Program-made: the position numbers and the translations under genes
The notes under the pieces: generated by a model
The model's database searches: none
Seen by the model: only the letters and a program-made list of their open reading frames with translations
What the model was told of the DNA's origin: nothing
Source of the DNA: a virus
DNA: 64,000 bases
Reading direction: 5' to 3' (one strand)
Virus record (IMG/VR): IMGVR_UViG_3300028558_000001
Coordinates: 1-64,000 of that record
Shown here: positions 16,256 through 64,000 of the stretch, piece by piece
Numbering within the stretch: the stretch's first letter is position 1
Layout: the number at the start of each line of letters is the position of its first letter

Positions 16256-16648
16256 CTACTGTACTTGAATATCGGGAATAATTGACGATGGTTTAAACAC
16301 TACCTTATAATGATAAGGATTGGAGGGAACAGAGTCAATCTGTTCCGCAAAATAAGTCACATTATCAGATACTCCAAGATAATGTTTCTTATACTGATCA
16401 GGACCAGTCTTACAAATTACAGAGATTTCTTTTGGTAAGTTAGTACCGGGCTTAATAGAGCATAATCCTTCAATGGTTAGGATATAATCATTAGTAATTC
16501 CATTATAGAATACTACTCTCCTATTAACTTTAAAGCTGTCAGCATCTATTGACAAGTTGTTAGACACTACAACTGAATCAGGACTACAACCAGATAAAGC
16601 AGCAAGTGCAATTACAAAAAACAGAGGTTTAATAATATTAATTTTCAT
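16256..16648 (-). CDS. Lipoprotein
   Basis: Signal peptide with lipobox LSGC. Confidence 0.8.
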   Translation of the reverse strand: MKINIIKPLFFVIALAALSGCSPDSVVVSNNLSIDADSFKVNRRVVFYNGITNDYILTIEGLCSIKPGTNLPKEISVICKTGPDQYKKHYLGVSDNVTYFAEQIDSVPSNPYHYKVVFKPSSIIPDIQVQ

Positions 16649-16941
16649 AATGATAATTCTCCAACTGTATCTACTCTAGAATCAAATAAAACCAATTCTA
16701 TCTTCCTACGAGTGACTTTATGGGTAGACTCTAGACTATCCGCCACCATTTGTAAAGTGGATAATACAAGGGACTCTGGAATTTTATAGTTGAAATGTCT
16801 AGTGGCATAGCACTTGATACCGTCCCCTAGAGTAGGATCACCATCAATTGCAGAGAACTTCCACTTAAGAGCCTCTACATCAGGTTTAATATCTACGGGA
16901 TTACCTTCCATTGTTACATGGCACTCATAATATTTCGTCAT
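16645..16941 (-). CDS. Hypothetical protein
   Basis: AAGGA SD; 4-bp overlap with next gene. Confidence 0.7.
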   Translation of the reverse strand: MTKYYECHVTMEGNPVDIKPDVEALKWKFSAIDGDPTLGDGIKCYATRHFNYKIPESLVLSTLQMVADSLESTHKVTRRKIELVLFDSRVDTVGELSL

Positions 16942-16969: not shown

Positions 16970-16998
16970 TTGACATGGTATAAAATATTTGGTATAAT
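16970..16998 (+). promoter_or_regulatory. Perfect sigma70 promoter, antisense to local genes
   Basis: TTGACA-N17-TATAAT with no credible + strand gene downstream. Confidence 0.85.
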
Positions 16999-17072
16999 CA
17001 GTATGTTGAAAAGAAATAGTGATTCGTTTGTTACCACTTATTGTTAGACTTTGTTACTAACTAGTGAGTATC

Positions 17073-17118
17073 AGAATAGAGTCAACGAAGTTCTTTCCGA
17101 ATGTAATGAGGAAAGTCA
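17073..17118 (+). repeat. 46-nt structured element, copy A
   Basis: 44/46 identical to the reverse complement of 43830..43875. Confidence 0.92.
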
Positions 17119-17155
17119 TAGTGATCCAATAATGAACCACTATGACTAGATTGTA

Positions 17156-18106
17156 TCAAAGACTATTAATATCTTCGTTACGTGAACGAAGATAACGATC
17201 AAATGCCTGTTCTAGTTCTGGTTTGTTGCCAGCAAACTCTACAACACCATAAGTATTCTTCTTAAGATCAGTATGTGGATTGAATCCATGTTCAAAGAAC
17301 ATTTCCCATCTACCAATATAGTTTCTCTTAATCTTAGTTCCGTGGAATAGATGTTCAATAGTATTATTGACTACACCTAGTTTACCATTGATATGTGTAA
17401 CTGCTCTGGCTTCCCAACGCTTAACAACATCTTTATATTCCTGAGTAATCTTTTCTGGTAGTGACCAGTCAGCTTTACCAGCAATACCTAGTGCCATATG
17501 ATGATCGGCTGAACCCATACCGCCTAGTTCGAATAGTCCACCAAGACGATCTAGAATATCTCTAGTCCAAATCCAAGCATAACCGGAATGAGGATAATCA
17601 TATGGACCCTTATCATGCTTCCAGAAGTTTGAAGAGTTTGGTGCTACTGGTTCACCAGATTTGTAAACATCAGCGAATGAACGATGGACAGCTAGATTTT
17701 CATCATTTGGTCCTAGATCATAAGCATAACGCCAAGGCTGTGCAACTGGATATAGATGAAGTGTATTAATACAATCAGCAGCCCATCCAGACTTACGGAA
17801 AATAATGTCAGCATCAAAAGTACCAATGTACTTTGCTGAGAATGGGAGTCTTGCAATACCAATATTTAGAAGTGATTCTTTATTCCAAACAAGAGTAGAA
17901 GCCTTTACCTTAACTAAGGTTACATTAGGATTTGCTTCTAAATGACCTAATGAAAAGGGACGATCACCAAACTGACATTCAACGATTGTTACATGTACAT
18001 TTGGTTCTAATAGCCAGTTAGCGATAGCTTTCTTTGCTAATTCAATGCGAGAATCCCATTGAACGGGATTGCTCACACAAGTTACTATATGTAGTGTGTT
18101 AGACAT
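17156..18106 (-). CDS. Glycosyltransferase-like (GT-A fold) protein
   Basis: WNKESLLNIG followed by a DAD (DxD) motif; GxD and HLFH downstream. Confidence 0.6.
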   Translation of the reverse strand: MSNTLHIVTCVSNPVQWDSRIELAKKAIANWLLEPNVHVTIVECQFGDRPFSLGHLEANPNVTLVKVKASTLVWNKESLLNIGIARLPFSAKYIGTFDADIIFRKSGWAADCINTLHLYPVAQPWRYAYDLGPNDENLAVHRSFADVYKSGEPVAPNSSNFWKHDKGPYDYPHSGYAWIWTRDILDRLGGLFELGGMGSADHHMALGIAGKADWSLPEKITQEYKDVVKRWEARAVTHINGKLGVVNNTIEHLFHGTKIKRNYIGRWEMFFEHGFNPHTDLKKNTYGVVEFAGNKPELEQAFDRYLRSRNEDINSL

Positions 18107-25744: not shown

Positions 25745-25846
25745 AGTCCTCTAAATTTTTGTGAGAAATATTTTGAGTGACCTATGGTCGAGTAAAAAAT
25801 TATCGAAAATATTTTGATCGCTTTTCGGAACCACCCCCACGATCAT

Positions 25847-26545
25847 GATTCGCGCCAAATGTCAATGGTCGAAAGTCACTTATCCACAACTTTTTCAGCC
25901 TCAAAAAGCCGCCTCCCAAAAACCGACGACTCGCGATTGCCTAACCCATTGATTCGACTAGCTTTTCGACTCGGATTCATGCTCTCCAGCTAGGCTTTTT
26001 CGCCCTGTTTTTTACCAGCTAGAAAGCCCTTATGCGACTAAAGGCTATGCCCATTTCCTGCCCTAGGCGTCGTCTCACAAGGACAAGCCCTGACTCGCCC
26101 TAGGCTATCCCCTGACGCTGTTTAGACGGGGTTCTAGACTCGAATCTGGCTTGCCCTGACATGCCCCTATCGTGGCGAGTCCTATCGTCAGGGCATGATC
26201 TAACGCCCCTGACATGGGCTATCCCCTGACTCTCTTTCAAAGCGATTTGGAGCGGCGAGCAAGGGCGACTTTGCCCCTACTCGGCTACTATGCTAGCGGC
26301 CTATGTATTCAAGCCCTGTCCTTGCCCTTCTAATGGCGTTCTAGAGCCTATCTAACGAGTCATCCTTGACCTAGTTCTACCATGCCAATGGAATCGCCTA
26401 TCGAATCCCTTTCAAAGCCATTTCAAACGGGGCGAATCCCTATCGCTTATGCCATAACCTGTTGTTTTCTAATGGGCTTCGAATGCGCGATTCCCTTCCT
26501 ATTGCCTCGTTTTTGCCTGAATCACGATCTCCTAACCCATTGTTT
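25847..26545. other. Origin-like / protein-binding region (16 GANTC, one DnaA box, three IHF-like sites, six CCCTGAC)
   Basis: TTATCCACA 25880-25888; TAACCCATTGATT 25942-25954 and one-mismatch sites 26455-26467 and 26533-26545. Confidence 0.5.
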
Positions 26546-26607
26546 TCTAACGTGTTTTTTTAGGGCTTTGGATCATACCGAATTCGGTTATTCTAATTTC
26601 AGTTCAA

Positions 26608-42749: not shown

Positions 42750-43832
42750 ATGTTTAAGTTAATTTCTTCATATGCCAAAGCTGACTTCTTAGTTAATGAT
42801 GAATTAAAGTTATTTAGTAAGGGAAAGGACGCGGCAAGGGCTGCTGCCAATCTCCAACTCATCTATGCTATGAGCTATAAGGTTGCTCCTTATGTTAAGC
42901 CATCTAATGAATGGAAGGAACGTGAGCAAGAGAGATTAGATTCTGGTTATCATAAGAAGGTACTGCCAGAACTACAAAAGTATTGCTTACCAGAACATTT
43001 CGTCCATGTCTGTAAGAAGTCTCCTTCTCTCATTGCATATACTGCTAATGATTATAAGGGTGCGAATGACCTACAGACTCAATCCTCAATCTCTGGTTAT
43101 CTAGAGCGGTTTGCTCCATCTGTAAAAGCACAAGAAGTAGAAGTCCTACAAGAAGCACATGATACTGCTTTTGCTTTCACTGATTTAATGTGGGCAAAGA
43201 CTCCAGATGAAATCGTTGAGTGCTATACCAATTTCGATCCTGATACCAAGGGTGTGTCTGACTCCTGTATGAGGTATGAAAACTTTTACGATGAAGGTTT
43301 TGATGGAGATGATGAAGAAAGAGGATGGATCACTCAGGTTCATCCAGTCTATGTATATGGTGACTCTGATATTTCTATTGCCCATCTAAAGAATCTAGAT
43401 GGAAAGGTAGTGGCAAGGGCTGCTGTCTTTGAAAAGAAGAAAGTATATTCTCGCGTCTATGGCTCCAAGGAAACAACCAATAGGCTTCATCAAATTCTAA
43501 AGAAGAAGGGATATAACAAGTCTTCTGGATACTTTAGTGATGCTGGACTAACAGAGTCTTTATATGGTGCTATGCTTCCAGCTATTAAATGGGATACTAA
43601 GTGTAGGTATTATAGGGATCATTATAATTATAGGCATTCTGATGTTTATTATGTAATGCCATATATTGATGAAGAAGATATTGTTACCCTAGTTAAAGGA
43701 GAGACTGAGAAGGATGATTACTTCTTACTTGGTGATCAGTCAATCAAGATTGCTAAAGAAGGAAAGAAGTATTATCTACTAGGCGCTCAAAGTGCTGATG
43801 GAATTACTTCCTATCATGACTTCTCTAAGTGA
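42750..43832 (+). CDS. Paralog of 39384..40862 lacking the Cys-rich tail
   Basis: Shared EWK.REQ.RLDSG, LPEHFVHV, SCMRY, YSRVYG, MPYIDE. Confidence 0.8.
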   Translation: MFKLISSYAKADFLVNDELKLFSKGKDAARAAANLQLIYAMSYKVAPYVKPSNEWKEREQERLDSGYHKKVLPELQKYCLPEHFVHVCKKSPSLIAYTANDYKGANDLQTQSSISGYLERFAPSVKAQEVEVLQEAHDTAFAFTDLMWAKTPDEIVECYTNFDPDTKGVSDSCMRYENFYDEGFDGDDEERGWITQVHPVYVYGDSDISIAHLKNLDGKVVARAAVFEKKKVYSRVYGSKETTNRLHQILKKKGYNKSSGYFSDAGLTESLYGAMLPAIKWDTKCRYYRDHYNYRHSDVYYVMPYIDEEDIVTLVKGETEKDDYFLLGDQSIKIAKEGKKYYLLGAQSADGITSYHDFSK

Positions 43833-43875
43833 CTTTCCTCATTGCATTCGGAAAGAACTTCGTTGACTCTGTTCT
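43830..43875 (-). repeat. 46-nt structured element, copy B
   Basis: Reverse complement 44/46 identical to 17073..17118. Confidence 0.92.
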
Positions 43876-43891
43876 AGTTATTTGCTATAAA
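43863..43891 (+). promoter_or_regulatory. Sigma70-type promoter (sense)
   Basis: TTGACT-N17-TATAAA with TGn extension. Confidence 0.65.
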
Positions 43892-43939
43892 ACTTAGTAG
43901 GTGACTAGAAACAGTTACTATCTTTCTGAAGACATATGG

Positions 43940-43968
43940 ATTATAACAAGTTTTTAAAAGTGTGTCAA
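43940..43968 (-). promoter_or_regulatory. Perfect sigma70 promoter, antisense to local genes
   Basis: TTGACA-N17-TATAAT on the minus strand. Confidence 0.85.
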
Positions 43969-43996: not shown

Positions 43997-44656
43997 ATGC
44001 TAGTAAAGTGTATTGATGTTGGAGATTTTCCTTCGGTACTTACTAAAGGTATGGTATATGAAGCAGAGGATTATCTATACAACAAAAAGTGTTATATGAT
44101 TCGAAATGATAATGGAATGAACGCTCCATATTATAAGTCACGTTTTGAAGAAGTAGATGTTAAGGAAACTAAAGTGCAAGTAAAGTGTATTAAAGTTGAA
44201 GAGTGGGGAACCCATCTTACTCATGGGAAAGTATATACTGCAACCATTGATGGTAAATATTATAAAATTACTAATGACCTTGGTAGAGACAACGCCGGGT
44301 ATTCTAAAGACAGATTTGAAGTAGTGAAGGAGAATGAAATGAAGTTTGAAGTGGGAAAGATTTATGTTACTAATAATGCAACTAAGTATAAAGTTGTATG
44401 TATTGATAAACCCGGTAATGATCCAATTCTTGCCTACGATGTAAAAGAAGGCTATGTATATACCTTTGATAAGGATGGATACAACTATTATCGTGGGACA
44501 CTCAAGGCGTATATTGAACCCAAGAAGTGGTATACTTATGTTTATCTGAATGATAATGGAACTCCTTTTTCTGTTACTTCTGAAACTAGACCTACAGGAC
44601 CATATTATGATGATCGGAAGGTAATTCATACCTTTGAGTTTGAGCTAGGGGGATAA
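43997..44656 (+). CDS. Protein with tandem SH3-like repeats
   Basis: VKCI...LT.G.VY...I.ND.G....Y.K.RFE occurs twice. Confidence 0.65.
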   Translation: MLVKCIDVGDFPSVLTKGMVYEAEDYLYNKKCYMIRNDNGMNAPYYKSRFEEVDVKETKVQVKCIKVEEWGTHLTHGKVYTATIDGKYYKITNDLGRDNAGYSKDRFEVVKENEMKFEVGKIYVTNNATKYKVVCIDKPGNDPILAYDVKEGYVYTFDKDGYNYYRGTLKAYIEPKKWYTYVYLNDNGTPFSVTSETRPTGPYYDDRKVIHTFEFELGG

Positions 44657-57132: not shown

Positions 57133-58144
57133 TGAAAGCATATGAAATTCTAGTAGACTCACAGATTGAACCAGAAGCCAAGGTCGGAACACTTTGTTAT
57201 GAACTAAAGGGAATTGATTTTGGTGCTGCCGAACATGACTCTCATGTTCTAGGCGTCGAATGTGTTGCCGTCTCTCTTAAGGAGTCCGGCGACTATCCAT
57301 TCTTCTGTATTCCTGCGGCCCATCTAAAGGAACTTAAATGACTCCTAAAGAATTGGAACAGTTGGATGAAGCACTCCATAATGCCAGAGTGTTTCTCAAC
57401 GTGTATATGTCTGAATTTGATTCCATTACTCCTGTAATGATGAAGCAAATGGATGATGCAATTGCTTTAGTTAAATCAAAGTTAGGGGAGAGTGAGAATG
57501 TCAAAGATATTTACAAACAACTGCCACACCAGATTATGCCCTAATATCTTCGCTGGTTATCTAACAACCTCTAATAATTATCTAATCGAATTAAATTGGT
57601 GGGATAAGATTTTATTATGTCTGCGGCTAACTAATACAAAGAAGTTAGATATTAAGTATGTAGCCAATATTAATAAGATGAGGAAGTGATGAGTAGAACA
57701 GAAAAGGTATATGGCTATACAACAAAAGATTTGTTAGTAGGAACTACACCACGAAAAGTACAAGTATTTGATAATGGTGCTGCTCGTTGGGTAACTCAAA
57801 GGGATGGTAAACTCACAATGATTTCAGGAAAAGCTACCGATTCAACATTCATTGCCAATAAGGATTCTGATAATGAATGGATTCGTAATAATTTCAAGGC
57901 TAAGCGTGATCGTGTGAATGTCCCTCAGTCACGCGAAGAACTTGCTGAGAAGCAGAAAGCCCTTCGTGAAGATATTAGGGCTACCTGTATTGCCAAGTAT
58001 GGTGAAAATGTAGAATATGAAGGCGAAATCCGTAAAATGGATTATTATAGGGTTGACGGCTTTGGTGCAATCAGTTATAAAAGCAATAGGATCACTGGTT
58101 GGAACCGTGGTGGACTTTTTATCAAATCAACTGCCGCTGATTAA
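57132..58144 (+). other. Small hypothetical genes (57132-57341, 57338-57544, 57498-57689, 57689-58144)
   Basis: Overlapping start/stop codons. Confidence 0.65.
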
Positions 58145-58172
58145 TTGTTAAATAGTGGCAAAGGAGAGAGAA

Positions 58173-58328
58173 ATGAAACATATTAAAAATCCTATTGCCA
58201 AAGACCTTCGTACTCCGAAGTACCGACTCAGGGTCGTGAAGGACAAGAAATCATATGACCGCAAGGCACAGAAAAGGGAGGATCAAAAATCCTCCCTTTC
58301 TGACGTTTATTATCCTGCAATAGTGTAA
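58173..58328 (+). CDS. ArfA-like small basic protein (51 aa, not in the ORF track)
   Basis: AAGGAG SD; MKHIKNPIAKDLRTPKYRLRVVKDKKSYDRK...; resemblance to ArfA judged by eye. Confidence 0.6.
   Translation: MKHIKNPIAKDLRTPKYRLRVVKDKKSYDRKAQKREDQKSSLSDVYYPAIV
58269..58302. terminator. Intrinsic terminator hairpin inside the ArfA-like ORF and after the convergent gene
   Basis: AAAGGGAGGAT-CAAAA-ATCCTCCCTTT. Confidence 0.8.
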
Positions 58329-58732
58329 CTGATTTCTTCTCTTGAGAATTTCTTGCGACCGTCATTTGGTGAGACTTTCGTAAGCTTCCCTGCTTTCACC
58401 ATTTTTGAAAGAACAGGTGAAAGACTGTTCTTAACCACCTTCGTTTCCTGCATGATCTGATCGAAATTACAGGCTTTCATCTTCTGAATAGCATGGAGAA
58501 TTTTCTTCTCCGCCGTATCGAGGATGATTGGTTTTTCTTTTTCTGGCTTCACCATAGAAACAACATTGTCGGTGTTGTCCTTCTCTATGGTCATAGTGAA
58601 CTCAATCTTCTTCAATATGCCAAGGTCTTCAAGGGCTGCTAGAGCGCCCGTTACCTTGGCTTGGTTCTTGAGGGAAAGATTGTTAATGTCCACAACTCCA
58701 TGATATTTCCAAGCCATATGAACCTCCATCAT
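58310..58732 (-). CDS. Winged-helix (MarR-like C-terminus) DNA-binding protein; likely start 58717
   Basis: EKKILHAI...FDQIMQET...SLSPVLSKMVKAGKL...DGRK. Confidence 0.65.
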   Translation of the reverse strand: MMEVHMAWKYHGVVDINNLSLKNQAKVTGALAALEDLGILKKIEFTMTIEKDNTDNVVSMVKPEKEKPIILDTAEKKILHAIQKMKACNFDQIMQETKVVKNSLSPVLSKMVKAGKLTKVSPNDGRKKFSREEISYTIAG

Positions 58733-58748
58733 GTACTAACGATTCGGG

Positions 58749-58787
58749 ATCATACCTGACTCATACCTACCCGTCAAGCGACGGGTA
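58749..58787 (-). promoter_or_regulatory. Sigma70 promoter with a palindrome over the -35
   Basis: TTGACG-N17-TATGAT; TACCCGTC-N4-GACGGGTA. Confidence 0.7.
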
Positions 58788-58790
58788 TCT

Positions 58791-60464
58791 TTAGAAATCG
58801 TAGAGGTCGCGTAGTCCTTCGTAAGTAGCCCATTCACCTTCGACAGGTTGTCTTGACGCCTTTTCATACATTCCTAGGCTTTCATACTCAGAAGTGAAGC
58901 CAAATGGAACTAGATCGGCCATGATTTCTTCCTCTGTTCTATCTCTTAGGTTTTGTAGTGTATAATTATCAGAGAATTCTTTAAAGTATCCCTGATCGGA
59001 TAGCCAAGCGAACAGTACCAGACCCATAACCAAATCGTCAGTGCTTCCAGTTTCCGCTTCATATGAATTGTTTTTTCTGGAGAATGTTGATAATTCATGG
59101 ATAGTATCAAAATCATTAACGATAAACTGGTTTTGTTCCACTAATAGTTTTAGAAGAGAACAACCAATGTTCTTGACCTGACGAGTCGTTCTGATGCCGC
59201 GATCCTGAGAAGATTGCTGGCCGAATCCAGAAGAAACCGTCTTGCCGCCGCGACCATTGTTAATGGTATAGATGATGTTTTCATATTCAAAATCGAATAG
59301 AACAGATGATGATACCTGTTCTCCAATATCATTGATTTCAACTAGGACATATGCGTTATGATAAATCTTAGCCATATTGTAGATGATCTGAGCGTAATCA
59401 AGGGGTGTAGTTAAATTAGAACGATAGACGCATACCTGTTGATATGGCATGTCCGTAACGTCAATTATAGAAAACGCTGAGTAATCTAAGCCCTTGCCTC
59501 TGGATACGTCAGCTACTAGGACGTATGAATGATCCTCTTGAGGAATAACATATTGTTTAATTCCAAGCTTTTCCTCAAGAACTCTTCCTTGAACAAGTTC
59601 CTTGAGCTTCCAACCGGCGATTAGTGTTCCTGATGAACCCATGAATTCACAATTGAATTCCTGATCAAACTTCTCAATATCATTATTCATTGATTGGAGA
59701 GTCATTGCTCTCCAAGCTTCGTCTCTACCGGGAACGTCTGACCAAATAGCTTCAATACGATTATATGGGTTGCGCCCTTCCTCTGCATCTTTCCAAATCT
59801 TATAGAAATGGTTAAGACCGCATGGAGTAGAAATCATGATGACTTTAGTTCTCTTACCTTCTGAAACGGTAGGATAAACAGATGCGAAGAATTCATCGAA
59901 GTTCTCAATGAAGGCTGTTTCGTCAAGTACTAGACACTGGAAAGTATAACCACGAACAGCATCAGATGAAGTCGCGGCGGCAATAACACGACAACCATTT
60001 TCAAGAACGAATGAGTTTTTATTAAACTCTTTTACGCCTTGCTGGAGCCATTTAGGTAGATGCTGGTAAGATGTTTGAAGCTTACCAAGAATTTCTTTGG
60101 CAGTATCGCCCTTGTTGGCTAGTAGACCTACAGTTTTTTGATCATTAAAGATAATATAATGAAGGAGGAATCCACGAACAGCTTCGGTCTTTCCACTCTG
60201 TCTAGCCATCTTGGCAATCGTATAACGATTATCAATCATTGACTCTACAAGATCAACCTGATAGTCTCTGAGTTTAAATGATGATAAACCATCTTCTGTA
60301 ATAATCTTTACATACTTCTCAATGAAATAGATAGGATCATTCTTACATTTAATTCTTTCCTGAATCATTTCAGGAGTGAAGTTAATCTGAACGCCTTCTT
60401 TCTTGAGAAGCGGATTACCGTTATATGGTTTATCTTCGATGATATAATTGTCGTCATCAATCAT
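58791..60464 (-). CDS. gp17: Terminase large subunit (T4 gp17-like)
   Basis: ARQSGKT, LDETAF, ISTPCG, ADVSRG, DDLVM. Confidence 0.96.
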   Translation of the reverse strand: MIDDDNYIIEDKPYNGNPLLKKEGVQINFTPEMIQERIKCKNDPIYFIEKYVKIITEDGLSSFKLRDYQVDLVESMIDNRYTIAKMARQSGKTEAVRGFLLHYIIFNDQKTVGLLANKGDTAKEILGKLQTSYQHLPKWLQQGVKEFNKNSFVLENGCRVIAAATSSDAVRGYTFQCLVLDETAFIENFDEFFASVYPTVSEGKRTKVIMISTPCGLNHFYKIWKDAEEGRNPYNRIEAIWSDVPGRDEAWRAMTLQSMNNDIEKFDQEFNCEFMGSSGTLIAGWKLKELVQGRVLEEKLGIKQYVIPQEDHSYVLVADVSRGKGLDYSAFSIIDVTDMPYQQVCVYRSNLTTPLDYAQIIYNMAKIYHNAYVLVEINDIGEQVSSSVLFDFEYENIIYTINNGRGGKTVSSGFGQQSSQDRGIRTTRQVKNIGCSLLKLLVEQNQFIVNDFDTIHELSTFSRKNNSYEAETGSTDDLVMGLVLFAWLSDQGYFKEFSDNYTLQNLRDRTEEEIMADLVPFGFTSEYESLGMYEKASRQPVEGEWATYEGLRDLYDF

Positions 60465-60901
60465 TCTTTATTCTTTCTTAGTGTTTCTAGTGCTTCGTCT
60501 AGGTCTTTTGTAGTACCAACAAATAGATTGTTAGTTACTGTCTTTGGTCCTTGCTGACTTGTTGACTGACCCATTTGTTTCTTTAGATCAATAGTCTTCT
60601 TTTGAAGGTCCATTAAATCTTGGTTGGCTTTAAGCATAGTAGCAAAAATAGTTCCTAATACTTCATATGCTCTGGGATTCTGGCTTTGTTCTGCGATCTG
60701 TGATAGCTGATCAATTGCATCGTTGCCATCTTCGATTAGCTTCTTGATATTTCCTCTGGCATATTCGAAGTCTGCTTTAACTGAGTCATCATTAGCATCA
60801 TCAATTATTTTTGATACTGCCGTAGATGGTTCAGCAGTAAAGATAGAATTTAGAGGCGAGAGGCCAAGTTTCTTGCCGATTGGATCGTTATTAGCGGTCA
60901 T
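60461..60901 (-). CDS. gp16: Terminase small subunit (T4 gp16-like)
   Basis: DFEYAR, PRAYEV, NNLFVGTT; position before gp17. Confidence 0.9.
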   Translation of the reverse strand: MTANNDPIGKKLGLSPLNSIFTAEPSTAVSKIIDDANDDSVKADFEYARGNIKKLIEDGNDAIDQLSQIAEQSQNPRAYEVLGTIFATMLKANQDLMDLQKKTIDLKKQMGQSTSQQGPKTVTNNLFVGTTKDLDEALETLRKNKE

Positions 60902-61692
60902 AGGTCACTCATAATTGTTATAATACCAAAATTATCCGTCGCTTTGATATTTGCTTGTGGAATAGAATTTGCAACTAAAGTAGTTGGATTGCCATTAGCA
61001 TCCAATCCGGGTTCAGTTGTCATAGTGAATACTTCTGAATTATCATCAGCTAGATATACATTAGATTCAATGAACTTGATAATCTTCTGTGTTCTTACTG
61101 GCCCATAGAGTGCCGCCTTAAGAGTAAAGTTTAGGGTCCAAATGATAACCTGTTTATCAGAAAACACTTCTGATGTTGTATTCTCTAATTCAATACCATC
61201 ATAGATGATTGGAACATCTACCGTAACACCCATTTCTGGAATAAGATTACATGTGACTGTATATTCTGGTTCAAAGAATGGCAGAATTTGTTCTACAATT
61301 TTAGTACCGTCACTCATATTCTTTACATAAACATAGAGTTTTAATCGTATGTTATATGGAACAGGAGAAAACTGATAGCTCATTGAATTAGGATCAGCGG
61401 TCATAATGGCGCGTCTATTGGTTGAAACGCCTTTGCGATCACCATCATAAGCTATTGAAACTATTTCGTAGGACATTCTTGGGAGAGTAATTGCCGCCTG
61501 TCTATCTAGGTTGGGGTCTTGCTCGTCTCTAACCAACATCTTTTCTTTGTTGGCAAAAGATAATGGAACAGTAATAGCTTGTGTTTCAGTATTAGAAATA
61601 CTTCTAGTAATTTGAATATCAGAAAACAATGCTCCGAAAAGAGACATGTATTTTCTTAAAAGATCGAAACCAAATGGTGCGTTGCTTAACAT
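60898..61692 (-). CDS. gp15: Tail sheath stabiliser / terminator (T4 gp15-like)
   Basis: FGALFSDI, VPLSF..KEK, LPRMSYE, EQILPFF.P. Confidence 0.92.
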   Translation of the reverse strand: MLSNAPFGFDLLRKYMSLFGALFSDIQITRSISNTETQAITVPLSFANKEKMLVRDEQDPNLDRQAAITLPRMSYEIVSIAYDGDRKGVSTNRRAIMTADPNSMSYQFSPVPYNIRLKLYVYVKNMSDGTKIVEQILPFFEPEYTVTCNLIPEMGVTVDVPIIYDGIELENTTSEVFSDKQVIIWTLNFTLKAALYGPVRTQKIIKFIESNVYLADDNSEVFTMTTEPGLDANGNPTTLVANSIPQANIKATDNFGIITIMSDL

Positions 61693-62420
61693 TAGTGTTC
61701 AATTTCTCCAAATGGATTATCTTCTGTGAATACAACAAACGTATCTGCTTCTTTAAGTAATTCTTCATTATCTGCAAGTGGATCAATATGGATAAGATCA
61801 TATAGTTCGGAGATAATATAGTTTCCATCTTCGTCAGTCATTAGACCTCCGACTTCGTTTTCAACGGCATAAGCTAGCTCATCAGTTGTAAACTTCTGTT
61901 CAAGAATATCAATAGCAGGAATACCAGTATTGAAAGTTTCATTTGAATATTCAAATAATTCACATGTAAGTCTATATGAATATAGAGTACCTAGTTCATA
62001 GAAGATTTCTCTGTTATCAGTAAATTTGATCTGAAATAACTTCTGGTGAATTGGAAGGAAGATTAAATCTCCTTCCATTGGTCTAGAGATAGAATAAGGT
62101 GTACCGATAACTGTTTTGAATCTATCAATGGATACTGCTAGTGTAATCTGTGATCTAACTTGCATACCAAACTTGGAATAGATCGTATCTTGTGGAGCGT
62201 TATTGAAACCTGAAATAGATTCGATAAGCATTTCAATTGTGATTGGCGTATCATAGACTGACTGATCATCTGTAAAATAGATTTGATCGAAATTCTGTAG
62301 GTTTCTAGGAATATAGATTACATCTTGTCCGTAAATTTGAATCATTTCATCTACAAGGCTTTGGACCAAGCCTTGTTCAGAAGCATATGTAGTTTGATTA
62401 AAGTACGGATTAACTGTCAT
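61692..62420 (-). CDS. gp14: Neck protein (T4 gp14-like)
   Basis: NPYF, EMIQIYG.D..YIPR, SKFG, RP.EGDLI, ELFEYS.E, NPFG. Confidence 0.92.
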   Translation of the reverse strand: MTVNPYFNQTTYASEQGLVQSLVDEMIQIYGQDVIYIPRNLQNFDQIYFTDDQSVYDTPITIEMLIESISGFNNAPQDTIYSKFGMQVRSQITLAVSIDRFKTVIGTPYSISRPMEGDLIFLPIHQKLFQIKFTDNREIFYELGTLYSYRLTCELFEYSNETFNTGIPAIDILEQKFTTDELAYAVENEVGGLMTDEDGNYIISELYDLIHIDPLADNEELLKEADTFVVFTEDNPFGEIEH

Positions 62421-63142
62421 TAAATATATTTCCAGTTTTTAAATCGTTCTGTTTTACTATTTAACCTACACGTAATGGTTCTAGGAGTAACATTATATAC
62501 TTTGGCTGCATCAATAAGTAGTTGATATTCTACTTCATCAATAATAAATGGCTTTGATTTAATTACTTTATTTCTATACTCTGGATTTTCCCATAACTTT
62601 TTAGTATTATTACGGTGAACTTCTTTTAACTCACTTGAATCTTTATCAAGCCAAGTTTGTCTGTTTTCAACTGGAGATTTTTCTTCCCAATATTTGATCA
62701 TAGCTTCTCTATGGCTGCGAGCGCCATCATCCGACTTTTTATAAATCCTAGTTTTAAGACCTTCTTTATATTTTTCTTTTACTTCTGGCCTTTGCATGGC
62801 TTCCTTCGTTTTTTTAGAAATCTTTTCTTTAATAGTTAGAGCTTTATTTTCATCAGTAGTCCAACGTGCTACAGTTGTGTGTAAATTGTAGTATCTTACT
62901 TTTATCTCTTCTTTTTTAACCATATTAAGGTAATATTGTTCTTTTTCAAACAGGTCTTTTTTATTAGTATATATTCTAATAATAATACGTCTTTTAAAAT
63001 CATCTGGTCTTCTTTTATAGGAAGCTTTCATCCATCTAGAAGAACAAATATATCCATCATCTTCTGTTCCCCAATGACAACCTACATAATATCTCTTATG
63101 TTTTCGGTCGAACCAGATGTAAACGAAACCATATTTTTCCAT
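62420..63142 (-). CDS. Free-standing GIY-YIG (Seg-like) homing endonuclease
   Basis: GFVY...YYVG.H...GYICSS, E-Q and YYN motifs; basic C-terminal DNA-binding region; inserted between gp13 and gp14. Confidence 0.85.
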   Translation of the reverse strand: MEKYGFVYIWFDRKHKRYYVGCHWGTEDDGYICSSRWMKASYKRRPDDFKRRIIIRIYTNKKDLFEKEQYYLNMVKKEEIKVRYYNLHTTVARWTTDENKALTIKEKISKKTKEAMQRPEVKEKYKEGLKTRIYKKSDDGARSHREAMIKYWEEKSPVENRQTWLDKDSSELKEVHRNNTKKLWENPEYRNKVIKSKPFIIDEVEYQLLIDAAKVYNVTPRTITCRLNSKTERFKNWKYI

Positions 63143-63150
63143 AAAATTTT

Positions 63151-63182
63151 CTCCTGTAATTGTTTCTACAGAAGTATTTATG
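63151..63182 (-). promoter_or_regulatory. Late promoter plus SD-sequestering hairpin of the homing endonuclease
   Basis: CATAAATA-CTTCTGTA-GAAACAAT-TACAGGAG. Confidence 0.7.
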
Positions 63183-63197
63183 GTAAAAGTGTACCCC

Positions 63198-63956
63198 TCA
63201 GCCTATATAAACACCCATAGGAGCAAAGTATGTTTCTCTCATTTCCTTTTCAAGCTTTTCCTGTTCAATAACAGCTTCATCATAAATCTGCTTACCATTG
63301 AAAGTAATACCAGAAGGAAGAGTCATTGGACCGTACTTAGATGTATTAGTTCCGTATTGCTTTTTGATTAGAGCCGTGGCATACTTCTGTAGCCAACGAT
63401 TACCCCAAATTCTAGGATATTCATCTGGATCAATAACGTTATATGCTTCAACCATAATGAAGATACCGGGATTGATACCTGTCCAATCCATATCAATATA
63501 TAGAGTATTCTTAAATCTATTGTATCTTACTGGCTTCTCACCAACTAGAATCTGTTCTAGGAATTCTAGTCTTGATAGAGCCATGTAATATGGAACCATT
63601 GAGACAGATGTTAGATTATGAAGATCGTTTAACATGATCTGATAATGTAGGGAGAACATGTTATTAGTACTCATTTCCAAATCAATTGGGAAAATGCGTA
63701 CTGCCCCGACAAAGTTATCAGGGAGAGTAATGTACTTGTTATCAATATCTTGTTGTGTTAGACAATATGCATAATACGTCTGTTCTGTACCATCATAATG
63801 AAAGTCAGTGAAGTAATTTAGGGCTTCGTCAATTCTATCATCCAACTGATTAGCCAAATCAACTGTATCACCTTGAATGTTGATTTGTAGAACTGGCGCA
63901 CCTAATGCTCTTAGGCAATATGCTGCAAATTCATCCCTTGAGGTAGGTACTGCCAT
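63198..63956 (-). CDS. gp13: Neck protein (T4 gp13-like)
   Basis: YCLRALGAPV..IN, IDEAL..F..FHYDG, WLQKYATALIK.Q.G.N..KY. Confidence 0.93.
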   Translation of the reverse strand: MAVPTSRDEFAAYCLRALGAPVLQINIQGDTVDLANQLDDRIDEALNYFTDFHYDGTEQTYYAYCLTQQDIDNKYITLPDNFVGAVRIFPIDLEMSTNNMFSLHYQIMLNDLHNLTSVSMVPYYMALSRLEFLEQILVGEKPVRYNRFKNTLYIDMDWTGINPGIFIMVEAYNVIDPDEYPRIWGNRWLQKYATALIKKQYGTNTSKYGPMTLPSGITFNGKQIYDEAVIEQEKLEKEMRETYFAPMGVYIG

Positions 63957-64000
63957 GTCTTATTCCTTACTTAATGATGAGCACATAATTGGAAATGCAT

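Follow-up and report, generated by a model that had tools for sequence, protein, structure and literature searches.

Why would a phage place a perfect consensus promoter so that it fires against the genes that flank it, and what is the short, foldable element downstream of that promoter for? The question is raised by positions 16970-17118 of a window of 64,000 nucleotides, which comprises bases 1-64000 of a 176,660-bp virus record. Judged by its gene content, the record is a T4-like phage, a metagenomic genome of 176.7 kb with a G+C content of 37% and 24 tRNA genes; no tRNA or tmRNA gene lies within the window. The genome encodes the late sigma factor gp55, UvsW, UvsY, gp47, the gp61 primase, gp59 and RegA, and its large terminase is about 50% identical to those of the Sinorhizobium phiM12-type phages and of cyanomyoviruses. 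The two ends of the record share an overlap of 127 nt, so that the assembly is effectively circular. Close kin of the phage were found neither in phage nor in IMG/VR collections. To our knowledge, T4-like phages of environmental bacteria lack the MotA protein and the middle-promoter apparatus of T4. Profile searches of the present genome gave no match to MotA_activ and none to a single-subunit RNA polymerase, as was also the case for the control genomes.

The promoter at issue, TTGACA-N17-TATAAT, occupies 16970-16998 on the plus strand (-35 at 16970-16975, -10 at 16993-16998), matches the consensus at 12 of 12 positions and carries a TG before the -10. Both neighbouring ORFs are on the minus strand, so the promoter does run against the local genes, as an earlier note on this DNA had stated. 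One of them (16645-16941) starts 28 nt from the -35, and its 98-aa product is conserved in many phage contigs. The other (17156-18106), into which the promoter points, encodes a 316-aa protein that is glycosyltransferase-like according to Atlas. The whole unit, copy A, spans 16970-17118 (+) and ends with a block of 46 nt at 17073-17118. The leader extends from the predicted start at about 17005, which we place by the position of the -10, to the module (17005-17082). Directly 3' of the module comes an extra 9-bp hairpin, GTCATAGTG...CACTATGAC, at 17115-17146 (+), the fold of the 147 nt as a whole having a z-score of -2.9. The extra hairpin is not followed by a T-run and has no counterpart in copy B.

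The block recurs as copy B on the minus strand at 43830-43875, where 44 of 46 positions are identical to copy A and the two differences fall on the fifth base and on the middle base of a triloop (GTA in copy A, GCA in copy B). Except for the fifth base, this too had been described in the earlier note, and every coordinate and element that it gave for the two copies was found in place. Copy B reads from 43968 to 43830 and consists of another 12/12 promoter with a TG upstream of the -10 (43940-43968), a leader (43866-43933) and the block, the last three bases of which are the complement of the TGA stop of the gene that copy B points into (42750-43832, +, 360 aa, no known family). Behind its promoter lies a 219-aa gene, also of no known family (43997-44656, +). 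In both copies the 46-nt module begins about 74 nt downstream of the promoter. The family is larger than the two copies counted at first. A search of the whole genome for more copies, which the earlier note had proposed, brought out a third one, copy C, outside the window at genome 153221-153359 on the plus strand (L003 1402-1540, L005 3222-3360). It has the same 12/12 promoter with an extended -10, its block is identical at 43 of 46 positions with GAA as the second triloop, and it is placed between the 3' end of uvsW and gene 55, the late sigma factor gene with its true start at about 153182. A covariance model found no further module copies in the genome beyond A, B and C. The recurrence is not expected by chance: the 40-nt core pattern matches twice in the window and never in 100 shuffles, and the genome has nine perfect promoters against 0.4 expected, three of which precede the 46-nt element. 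The others include those at 105708 (+), 138675 (-), 91974 (+) and 108159 (+); one is found about 250 nt upstream of the first tRNA array, another stands directly before the tRNA-Cys of the second array, and two are within genes, those of the primase and of gp59. Since perfect promoters precede two tRNA arrays and gene blocks, this class of promoter looks functional in the phage.

What do the three copies share, and do they encode anything? All of them are antisense to their flanking genes and sit inside one-directional gene blocks. None has a downstream gene on its own strand, nor the SD and start codon of such a gene, and when the frames of copies A, B, C and of two related loci (L009 and L012, described below) were compared by eye, no conserved ORF was common to them. 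Peptide coding was rejected, as no frame runs through the 46-nt block without a break in one copy or more; the ATG-NAA-TGA mini-ORFs and the MRKV peptides are not conserved and lack an SD. The order of elements from the -10 is a conserved initial region (TATGT, then CAGnAAGATAnTAA), a middle hairpin whose stem varies between copies while its loop keeps a CAC-containing box, and the constant module. In copy A the leader is 69% A+T; two of its boxes, TATGT and AGnAAnATAGTnA, are conserved in part, and its hairpin region contains the box CCACTTA. Copies B and C have near-identical promoters and first ~35 nt, differ in the middle and converge again in the block, whereas copy A has diverged from both everywhere except in the block. 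The middle regions of the paralogues are only about 50% alike, as compared with 43-44 of 46 positions in the block. Such a distribution suggests that selection, or gene conversion, has acted mainly on the module.

The leader is not confined to the cassettes. At genome 91027-91135 (+) the same perfect promoter and leader occur a fourth time and drive the gp61 primase gene; the first ~35 nt of the copy B and copy C leaders are near-identical to this mRNA leader. Besides promoter and leader, the primase copy has in common with the cassettes the AACAGTTA stem arm and CGAAGTT, after which come an SD and a start codon whose ATG lines up with the one in hairpin 2 of the module. The primase leader has a U.G wobble where the middle hairpin of copy C has a C-G pair, a substitution that fits pairing at the level of RNA. 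Back to back with the primase promoter, a one-mismatch promoter at 90965-90993 (-) is directed into the end of the upstream 'DNA end protector' gene.

Is the fold of the module real? The earlier note had proposed that the element folds as two hairpins, which in copy A are hairpin 1, AAC-GAA-GTT (17084-17092, +), a 3-bp stem closed by C-G with a GNA triloop, and, abutting it, hairpin 2, CTTTCC-GA-AT-GTA-AT-GA-GGAAAG (17093-17115, +). In copy B the same pair covers 43833-43864 (-), with hairpin 1 at 43864-43856 and hairpin 2 at 43855-43833 and triloops GAA and GCA. Relatives of this locus were reached through gp55 among Logan and JGI contigs; their gp55 is 76-78% identical, one further contig has UvsW at 65%, and all have a perfect antisense promoter at the uvsW-gene 55 junction. 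The full unit comes from two lineages, L009 (identical to L111) and L012 (identical to L110), so that together with this phage only three are independent. In both lineages the whole unit is kept antisense at the junction. Hairpin 1 is AAC-GAA-GTT in this phage, TACC-GAA-GGTA in L009 and TATC-GGA-GATA in L012, its middle pair thus being A-T, C-G and T-A, respectively. Hairpin 2, which is CTTTCC-GA-AT-GNA-AT-GA-GGAAAG in this phage, becomes CTTCC-G-T-A-AC-GAA-GT-G-A-A-GGAAG in L009 and CTTCAT-GA-GT-GAA-AC-GA-ATGAAG in L012. It has ten stacked positions, including the tandem G.A/A.G, and a GNA triloop, and five of the ten covary. Over the 32-column alignment of the three lineages, 6 of 13 pairs were changed on both sides and none on one side; no standard pair was broken, and the sole non-standard cells were the G.A positions. 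Registers slid by 1-3 columns gave zero or one double change each. RNAalifold run on the full-length units also predicted hairpin 2, with compensatory changes in 5 of 8 pairs.

The G.A mismatches do not vary, nor do the first and last bases (G and A) of the triloops, between which T, C, A or G is found. Loss of the GNA loops and the GA pairs in homologs was among the outcomes that the earlier note had named as refuting its proposal, and both are kept in L009 and L012. The complementary strand would present C.T mismatches and TNC loops, which indicates that the functional strand is the RNA-like, non-template strand. Compensatory changes in the stems together with the kept G.A pairs and triloop G and A argue that the twin-hairpin fold is real and strand-specific, as far as three lineages can tell. 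Folding energy gives no such signal. The module is unremarkable with RNA and DNA parameters alike (z-scores of -0.0 to -1.7), and energy was dropped as evidence for it. The DNA parameters give no exceptional stability, and neither nearest-neighbour parameter set predicts hairpin 1, which consists of 3-4 bp and a triloop. There are no G.U pairs in the module. A covariance model of the twin hairpins, run on 90 loci and the genome itself, returned the known lineages only. Near copy A, a perfect 9-bp hairpin, ATCTTCGTT-acgtg-AACGAAGAT, occurs at window 17171-17193 in the last codons of the ORF at 17156-18106; the AACGAAG of hairpin 1 recurs in its 3' arm. Between the cassette promoter and gene 55, the relatives of the L009 type have an ORF of 66 aa with NUMOD3-like repeats (GRKLSEEHKQKL, PMSEETKLKIS; L009 ~385-530, L111 2039-2239); it looks like the remnant of the DNA-binding part of a homing endonuclease.

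The gene 55 junction was compared more broadly in a sample of 80 T4-like IMG/VR contigs (L014-L093) chosen by a gp55 profile, 79 of which were counted. A perfect antisense TTGACA-N16-18-TATAAT is present within 300 nt upstream of gp55 in 27 of the 79, whereas any other 300-nt bin on either strand has 0-6 perfect promoters. With at most one mismatch allowed, the antisense promoter is found at 41 loci. These promoters lie about 30-300 nt upstream of gp55 and fire into the end of uvsW or into a small gene inserted there. Distant phages usually have a mini-hairpin at the start site (4-6 bp, a loop of the TTATC/TATG type), the stems of which vary in a manner that looks like covariation. The cultured Synechococcus phage Syn9 (NC_008296) has TTGACA-N17-TAGAAT antisense just upstream of g55, directed into gp143 (L108 1916-1944, -); a weaker form is present in S-SRM01. 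At the gene 55 junction of the distant T4-like phages it is the promoter only that is conserved, and neither the twin GNA module nor the RNA body. Copy C is thus one instance of an antisense promoter shared by T4-like phages, with the same junction, orientation and promoter quality, whereas the twin GNA module, the predicted long structured RNA and the extra copies occur only in this lineage. Judged by this distribution, the antisense promoter at the gene 55 junction is ancient and widespread, and the predicted long structured RNA and its spread to two further sites are specific to this lineage. That distant phages keep the promoter and not the RNA body suggests that part of the function may lie in the promoter itself.

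Megablast of the copy A and copy B loci against 50,697 phage records gave no close DNA relative, exact-pattern scans of IMG/VR found no cassette, and scans of metagenome collections gave 0 hits and then 5 chance hits that had neither a -35 nor the module. Rfam yielded no match at the gathering score for the whole window, nothing overlapping the element at E up to 10 for the loci of copies A, B and C, and no match at E up to 0.1 for 20 related loci. The flanking proteins of copies A and B gave no relatives in IMG/VR. Relatives of the 98-aa gene beside copy A, at 66-73% identity, carry no cassette at that site, which fits acquisition of copy A by duplication.

What, then, are the cassettes? The reading that we favour, tentatively, is that they constitute a three-member family of early small structured RNAs. 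From the promoter, the absence of an ORF, the fold and its conservation, all of them observed, we infer a transcript and its ends and, beyond these, a protein partner and any target. Each cassette would be an independent early transcription unit, from whose consensus promoter the host sigma-70 RNA polymerase would produce an abundant non-coding RNA some 110-145 nt long. Such an RNA would begin with a leader that is conserved in part, continue with a middle hairpin that differs from copy to copy and end in a constant handle, and the handle, with its abutting GNA-triloop hairpins and tandem G.A pairs, would serve as a protein-binding platform. The three paralogues might then act in trans as regulators or decoys. 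That the cassettes and the primase mRNA have the leader in common suggests a shared binding factor, and hence a role as decoy or competitor: the primase mRNA has the same promoter, leader and first half of the handle, and the RNAs would compete with it for the leader-binding factor. Placement on the opposite strand would give the RNA defined ends and insulate a small gene inside long operons. Support comes from the cassettes' own 12/12 promoters, equal in quality to those of the tRNA arrays, from the lack of a conserved ORF, from the strand-specific covarying fold and from the hairpin that follows the unit in copy C, L009 and L012. The earlier note had offered a small-RNA family as an alternative; the idea fits, its size of two members being replaced by three members and a related primase mRNA leader.

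Several results count against small RNAs. No intrinsic terminator was called after copies A, B and C. The hairpin that follows the unit in copy C, L009 and L012 has a weak U tail, and the copy A hairpin has none; the one directly after copy C, TAAGACTAGT...ACTAGTCTTA, is oriented as a uvsW terminator and has a tail of 2-3 U on the cassette strand. A search for a complementary antisense target in the phage genome gave only matches of 10-15 nt, at chance level. The unremarkable folding energies and the lack of any wobble pair in the module belong on the same side. Short structured non-coding phage transcripts with their own promoter are known; examples are c4 of P1/P7 and, in T4, the stable RNAs rnaC and rnaD, both of which are co-transcribed with tRNAs. 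The cassettes, known from sequence, resemble them in being short, promoter-driven and structured, but they have no Rfam or sequence relationship to them, no target complementarity and no clear terminator.

The conserved promoter at gene 55 invites a different explanation, that strong early antisense initiation, or the mere occupancy by RNA polymerase, head-on to the operon, is the key act, and that the hairpin module merely stabilises or stops a short RNA. We regard this as unlikely, though by no means far-fetched. Copy C would early on occlude the transcription of gene 55, block read-through or silence uvsW by antisense; as the early promoters shut off, the late sigma factor and UvsW would rise, and copies A and B would act likewise on two other gene pairs. 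A 9/12 sense promoter-like site upstream of gene 55 (TTTAAA-N18-TACAAT) does overlap the antisense -35 of copy C, and the antisense promoter faces the uvsY-uvsW operon, for which a separate near-consensus promoter lies at 155842-155870. In T4, UvsW is made late and clears R-loops from origins (PMC3016281), so its timing matters. The explanation also accounts best for the distant conservation, that is, the perfect promoters in 27 of 79 contigs, the 41 loci with at most one mismatch and the Syn9 promoter, at sites where the RNA body is not conserved. It leaves unexplained, however, why the three paralogues keep a 33-nt twin hairpin almost unchanged and why that hairpin covaries in relatives. Inspection by eye showed no sense promoter that overlaps copy A or copy B, and between the unit and uvsW there is a terminator hairpin in copy C, L009 and L012. 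As to simple mobility, T4-type phages carry repeated cassettes of a consensus promoter and a stem-loop that recombine, the promoter-early stem-loops (PeSLs) of RB49 and phi1 (Arbiol et al. 2010, PMC2839356). Copies A and B could accordingly be functionless by-products or remnants, for example of lost downstream genes, of a promoter and stem-loop module copied to new intergenic sites by recombination. The copy A site, unoccupied in the relatives of its flanking gene, and the fourth promoter-leader copy, which drives primase with its ATG aligned to that of hairpin 2, fit such a history. The PeSLs are likewise short repeated intergenic modules with a consensus sigma-70 promoter, a stem-loop and evidence of mobility (PMC2839356). 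The resemblance ends there: PeSLs are in the sense of a gene and end in the SD and start codon of the downstream ORF, whereas all three cassettes are antisense and have neither SD, start codon nor gene, and the G/C-rich PeSL terminator overlaps or abuts the promoter, whereas the twin GNA hairpins lie about 85 nt after the -10. No stem-loop is seen between -35 and +1 in copies A, B and C. Out of three PeSL features tested, the promoter module is present, the terminator stem-loop and the SD with start codon are absent, and the primase copy alone has a gene. That the block remains identical at 43-44 of 46 positions between diverged flanks suggests that the module is under selection, its fold covaries in relatives, and functionless copies are in our view very unlikely.

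The first choice of the earlier note was an R-loop replication origin, in which the promoter transcript stays hybridised and primes the leading strand while the displaced non-template strand folds into the GNA hairpins and recruits the primosome (gp59/gp41/gp61). We consider such a mechanism rather unlikely here, and it is distinctly unlikely that the cassettes are early-promoter R-loop origins with primosome-loading GNA hairpins of which the gene 55 antisense promoter is the counterpart of T4 ori(uvsY). What fits it is circumstantial. The phage has gp59, primase, uvsW and uvsY; copy C is beside the last two, and ori(uvsY) is the other name of T4 oriF. The number of copies recalls the multiple origins of T4, and the structure is strand-specific on the non-template strand, which would be the one exposed. 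Very short C(GNA)G-closed stems with no wobble pairs suit DNA, in which C(GNA)G mini-hairpins are unusually stable, and neither a clear terminator nor an RNA target was found. In T4, oriF (uvsY) and oriG (34) each take up about 100 bp, made of a promoter and an element downstream of it, while oriE requires an early promoter (Kreuzer and Brister 2010, PMC3016281); the cassettes likewise have a promoter with no obligatory coding role and ~100 bp following it. The tests that were run do not favour an origin. The T4 origins share no sequence motif, and their A+T-rich unwinding element is sequence-independent and replaceable (PMC3016281), whereas a specific structured module and leader are conserved here, and the leader also heads an ordinary primase mRNA. 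The cassette leaders are only mildly A+T-rich, 68-69% as compared with 63% for the genome, which is the 76th-83rd percentile of 70-nt windows. While oriF and oriG use MotA-dependent middle promoters, the cassettes have a -35 TTGACA and no MotA box. The DNA folding parameters, as noted, show no exceptional stability. Finally, oriE, oriF and oriG are at points of transcription switch or skew shift, and the cassettes are at neither, as they lie within one-directional blocks with no inflection of the cumulative GC skew at 17, 44 or 153 kb. A T4-origin promoter is thus present by sequence, and the MotA middle promoter and the strand or skew switch are absent.

A better origin-like site is found elsewhere in the window. 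The cumulative GC skew of the genome is lowest at about 26 kb and highest at about 109 kb. Window 25800-26600 holds the densest GANTC cluster of the genome (15 in 700 nt against an average of about 2.3), and a perfect DnaA box at 25880 coincides with the skew minimum and with the divergence of leftward and rightward gene blocks. By these sequence features, the site at ~26 kb is the most conventional origin-like site. The skew is slightly positive across the minus-strand structural block at 66-84 kb (window 58000-64000 on to 86 kb), so that part of it is unexplained by the coding strand and may reflect replication from ~26 kb to ~109 kb. The GANTC cluster hints at a host with CcrM-type methylation.

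Other known elements were compared with the module and set aside. Hairpin 2 contains an SD-like GAGGAAAG and the phage has RegA, which suggested an SD mimic or a RegA operator; L012 has AUGAAG in place of GAGGAAAG, and this reading was therefore dropped. CsrA-type GGA loops were dismissed with GGA present in L012 only, and a CRISPR repeat, a retron, IS200/605 ends and an N4-type hairpin promoter had no supporting gene or repeat. In shape the module is close to the d(GCGAAGC)-type DNA mini-hairpins and to the hairpin promoters of the phage N4 virion RNA polymerase, which act as single-stranded or extruded DNA and have the same short C-G-closed stems with a GNA triloop. Unlike the N4 hairpin promoters, the cassettes are tied to a sigma-70 promoter.

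Taken as it stands, the finding is a non-coding phage cassette or small RNA under its own promoter, which combines a structural motif not described before with a genomic position that is conserved. The family gives a concrete non-coding element, backed by covariation and present in three copies, that is tied to the junction of the late sigma gene, and the backward consensus promoter at gene 55 extends to between a third and a half of the sampled T4-like contigs. As a motif, the twin GNA-triloop fold is both new and compact, and its partner would bind either RNA or single-stranded DNA. If the R-loop reading were true, the cassettes would be the first sequence-defined origin signal for T4-like phages outside the T-even group. 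Among cultured relatives, Syn9 offers a usable experimental proxy. Whichever reading is right, the element marks a conserved control of early infection that is absent from annotation and from Rfam.
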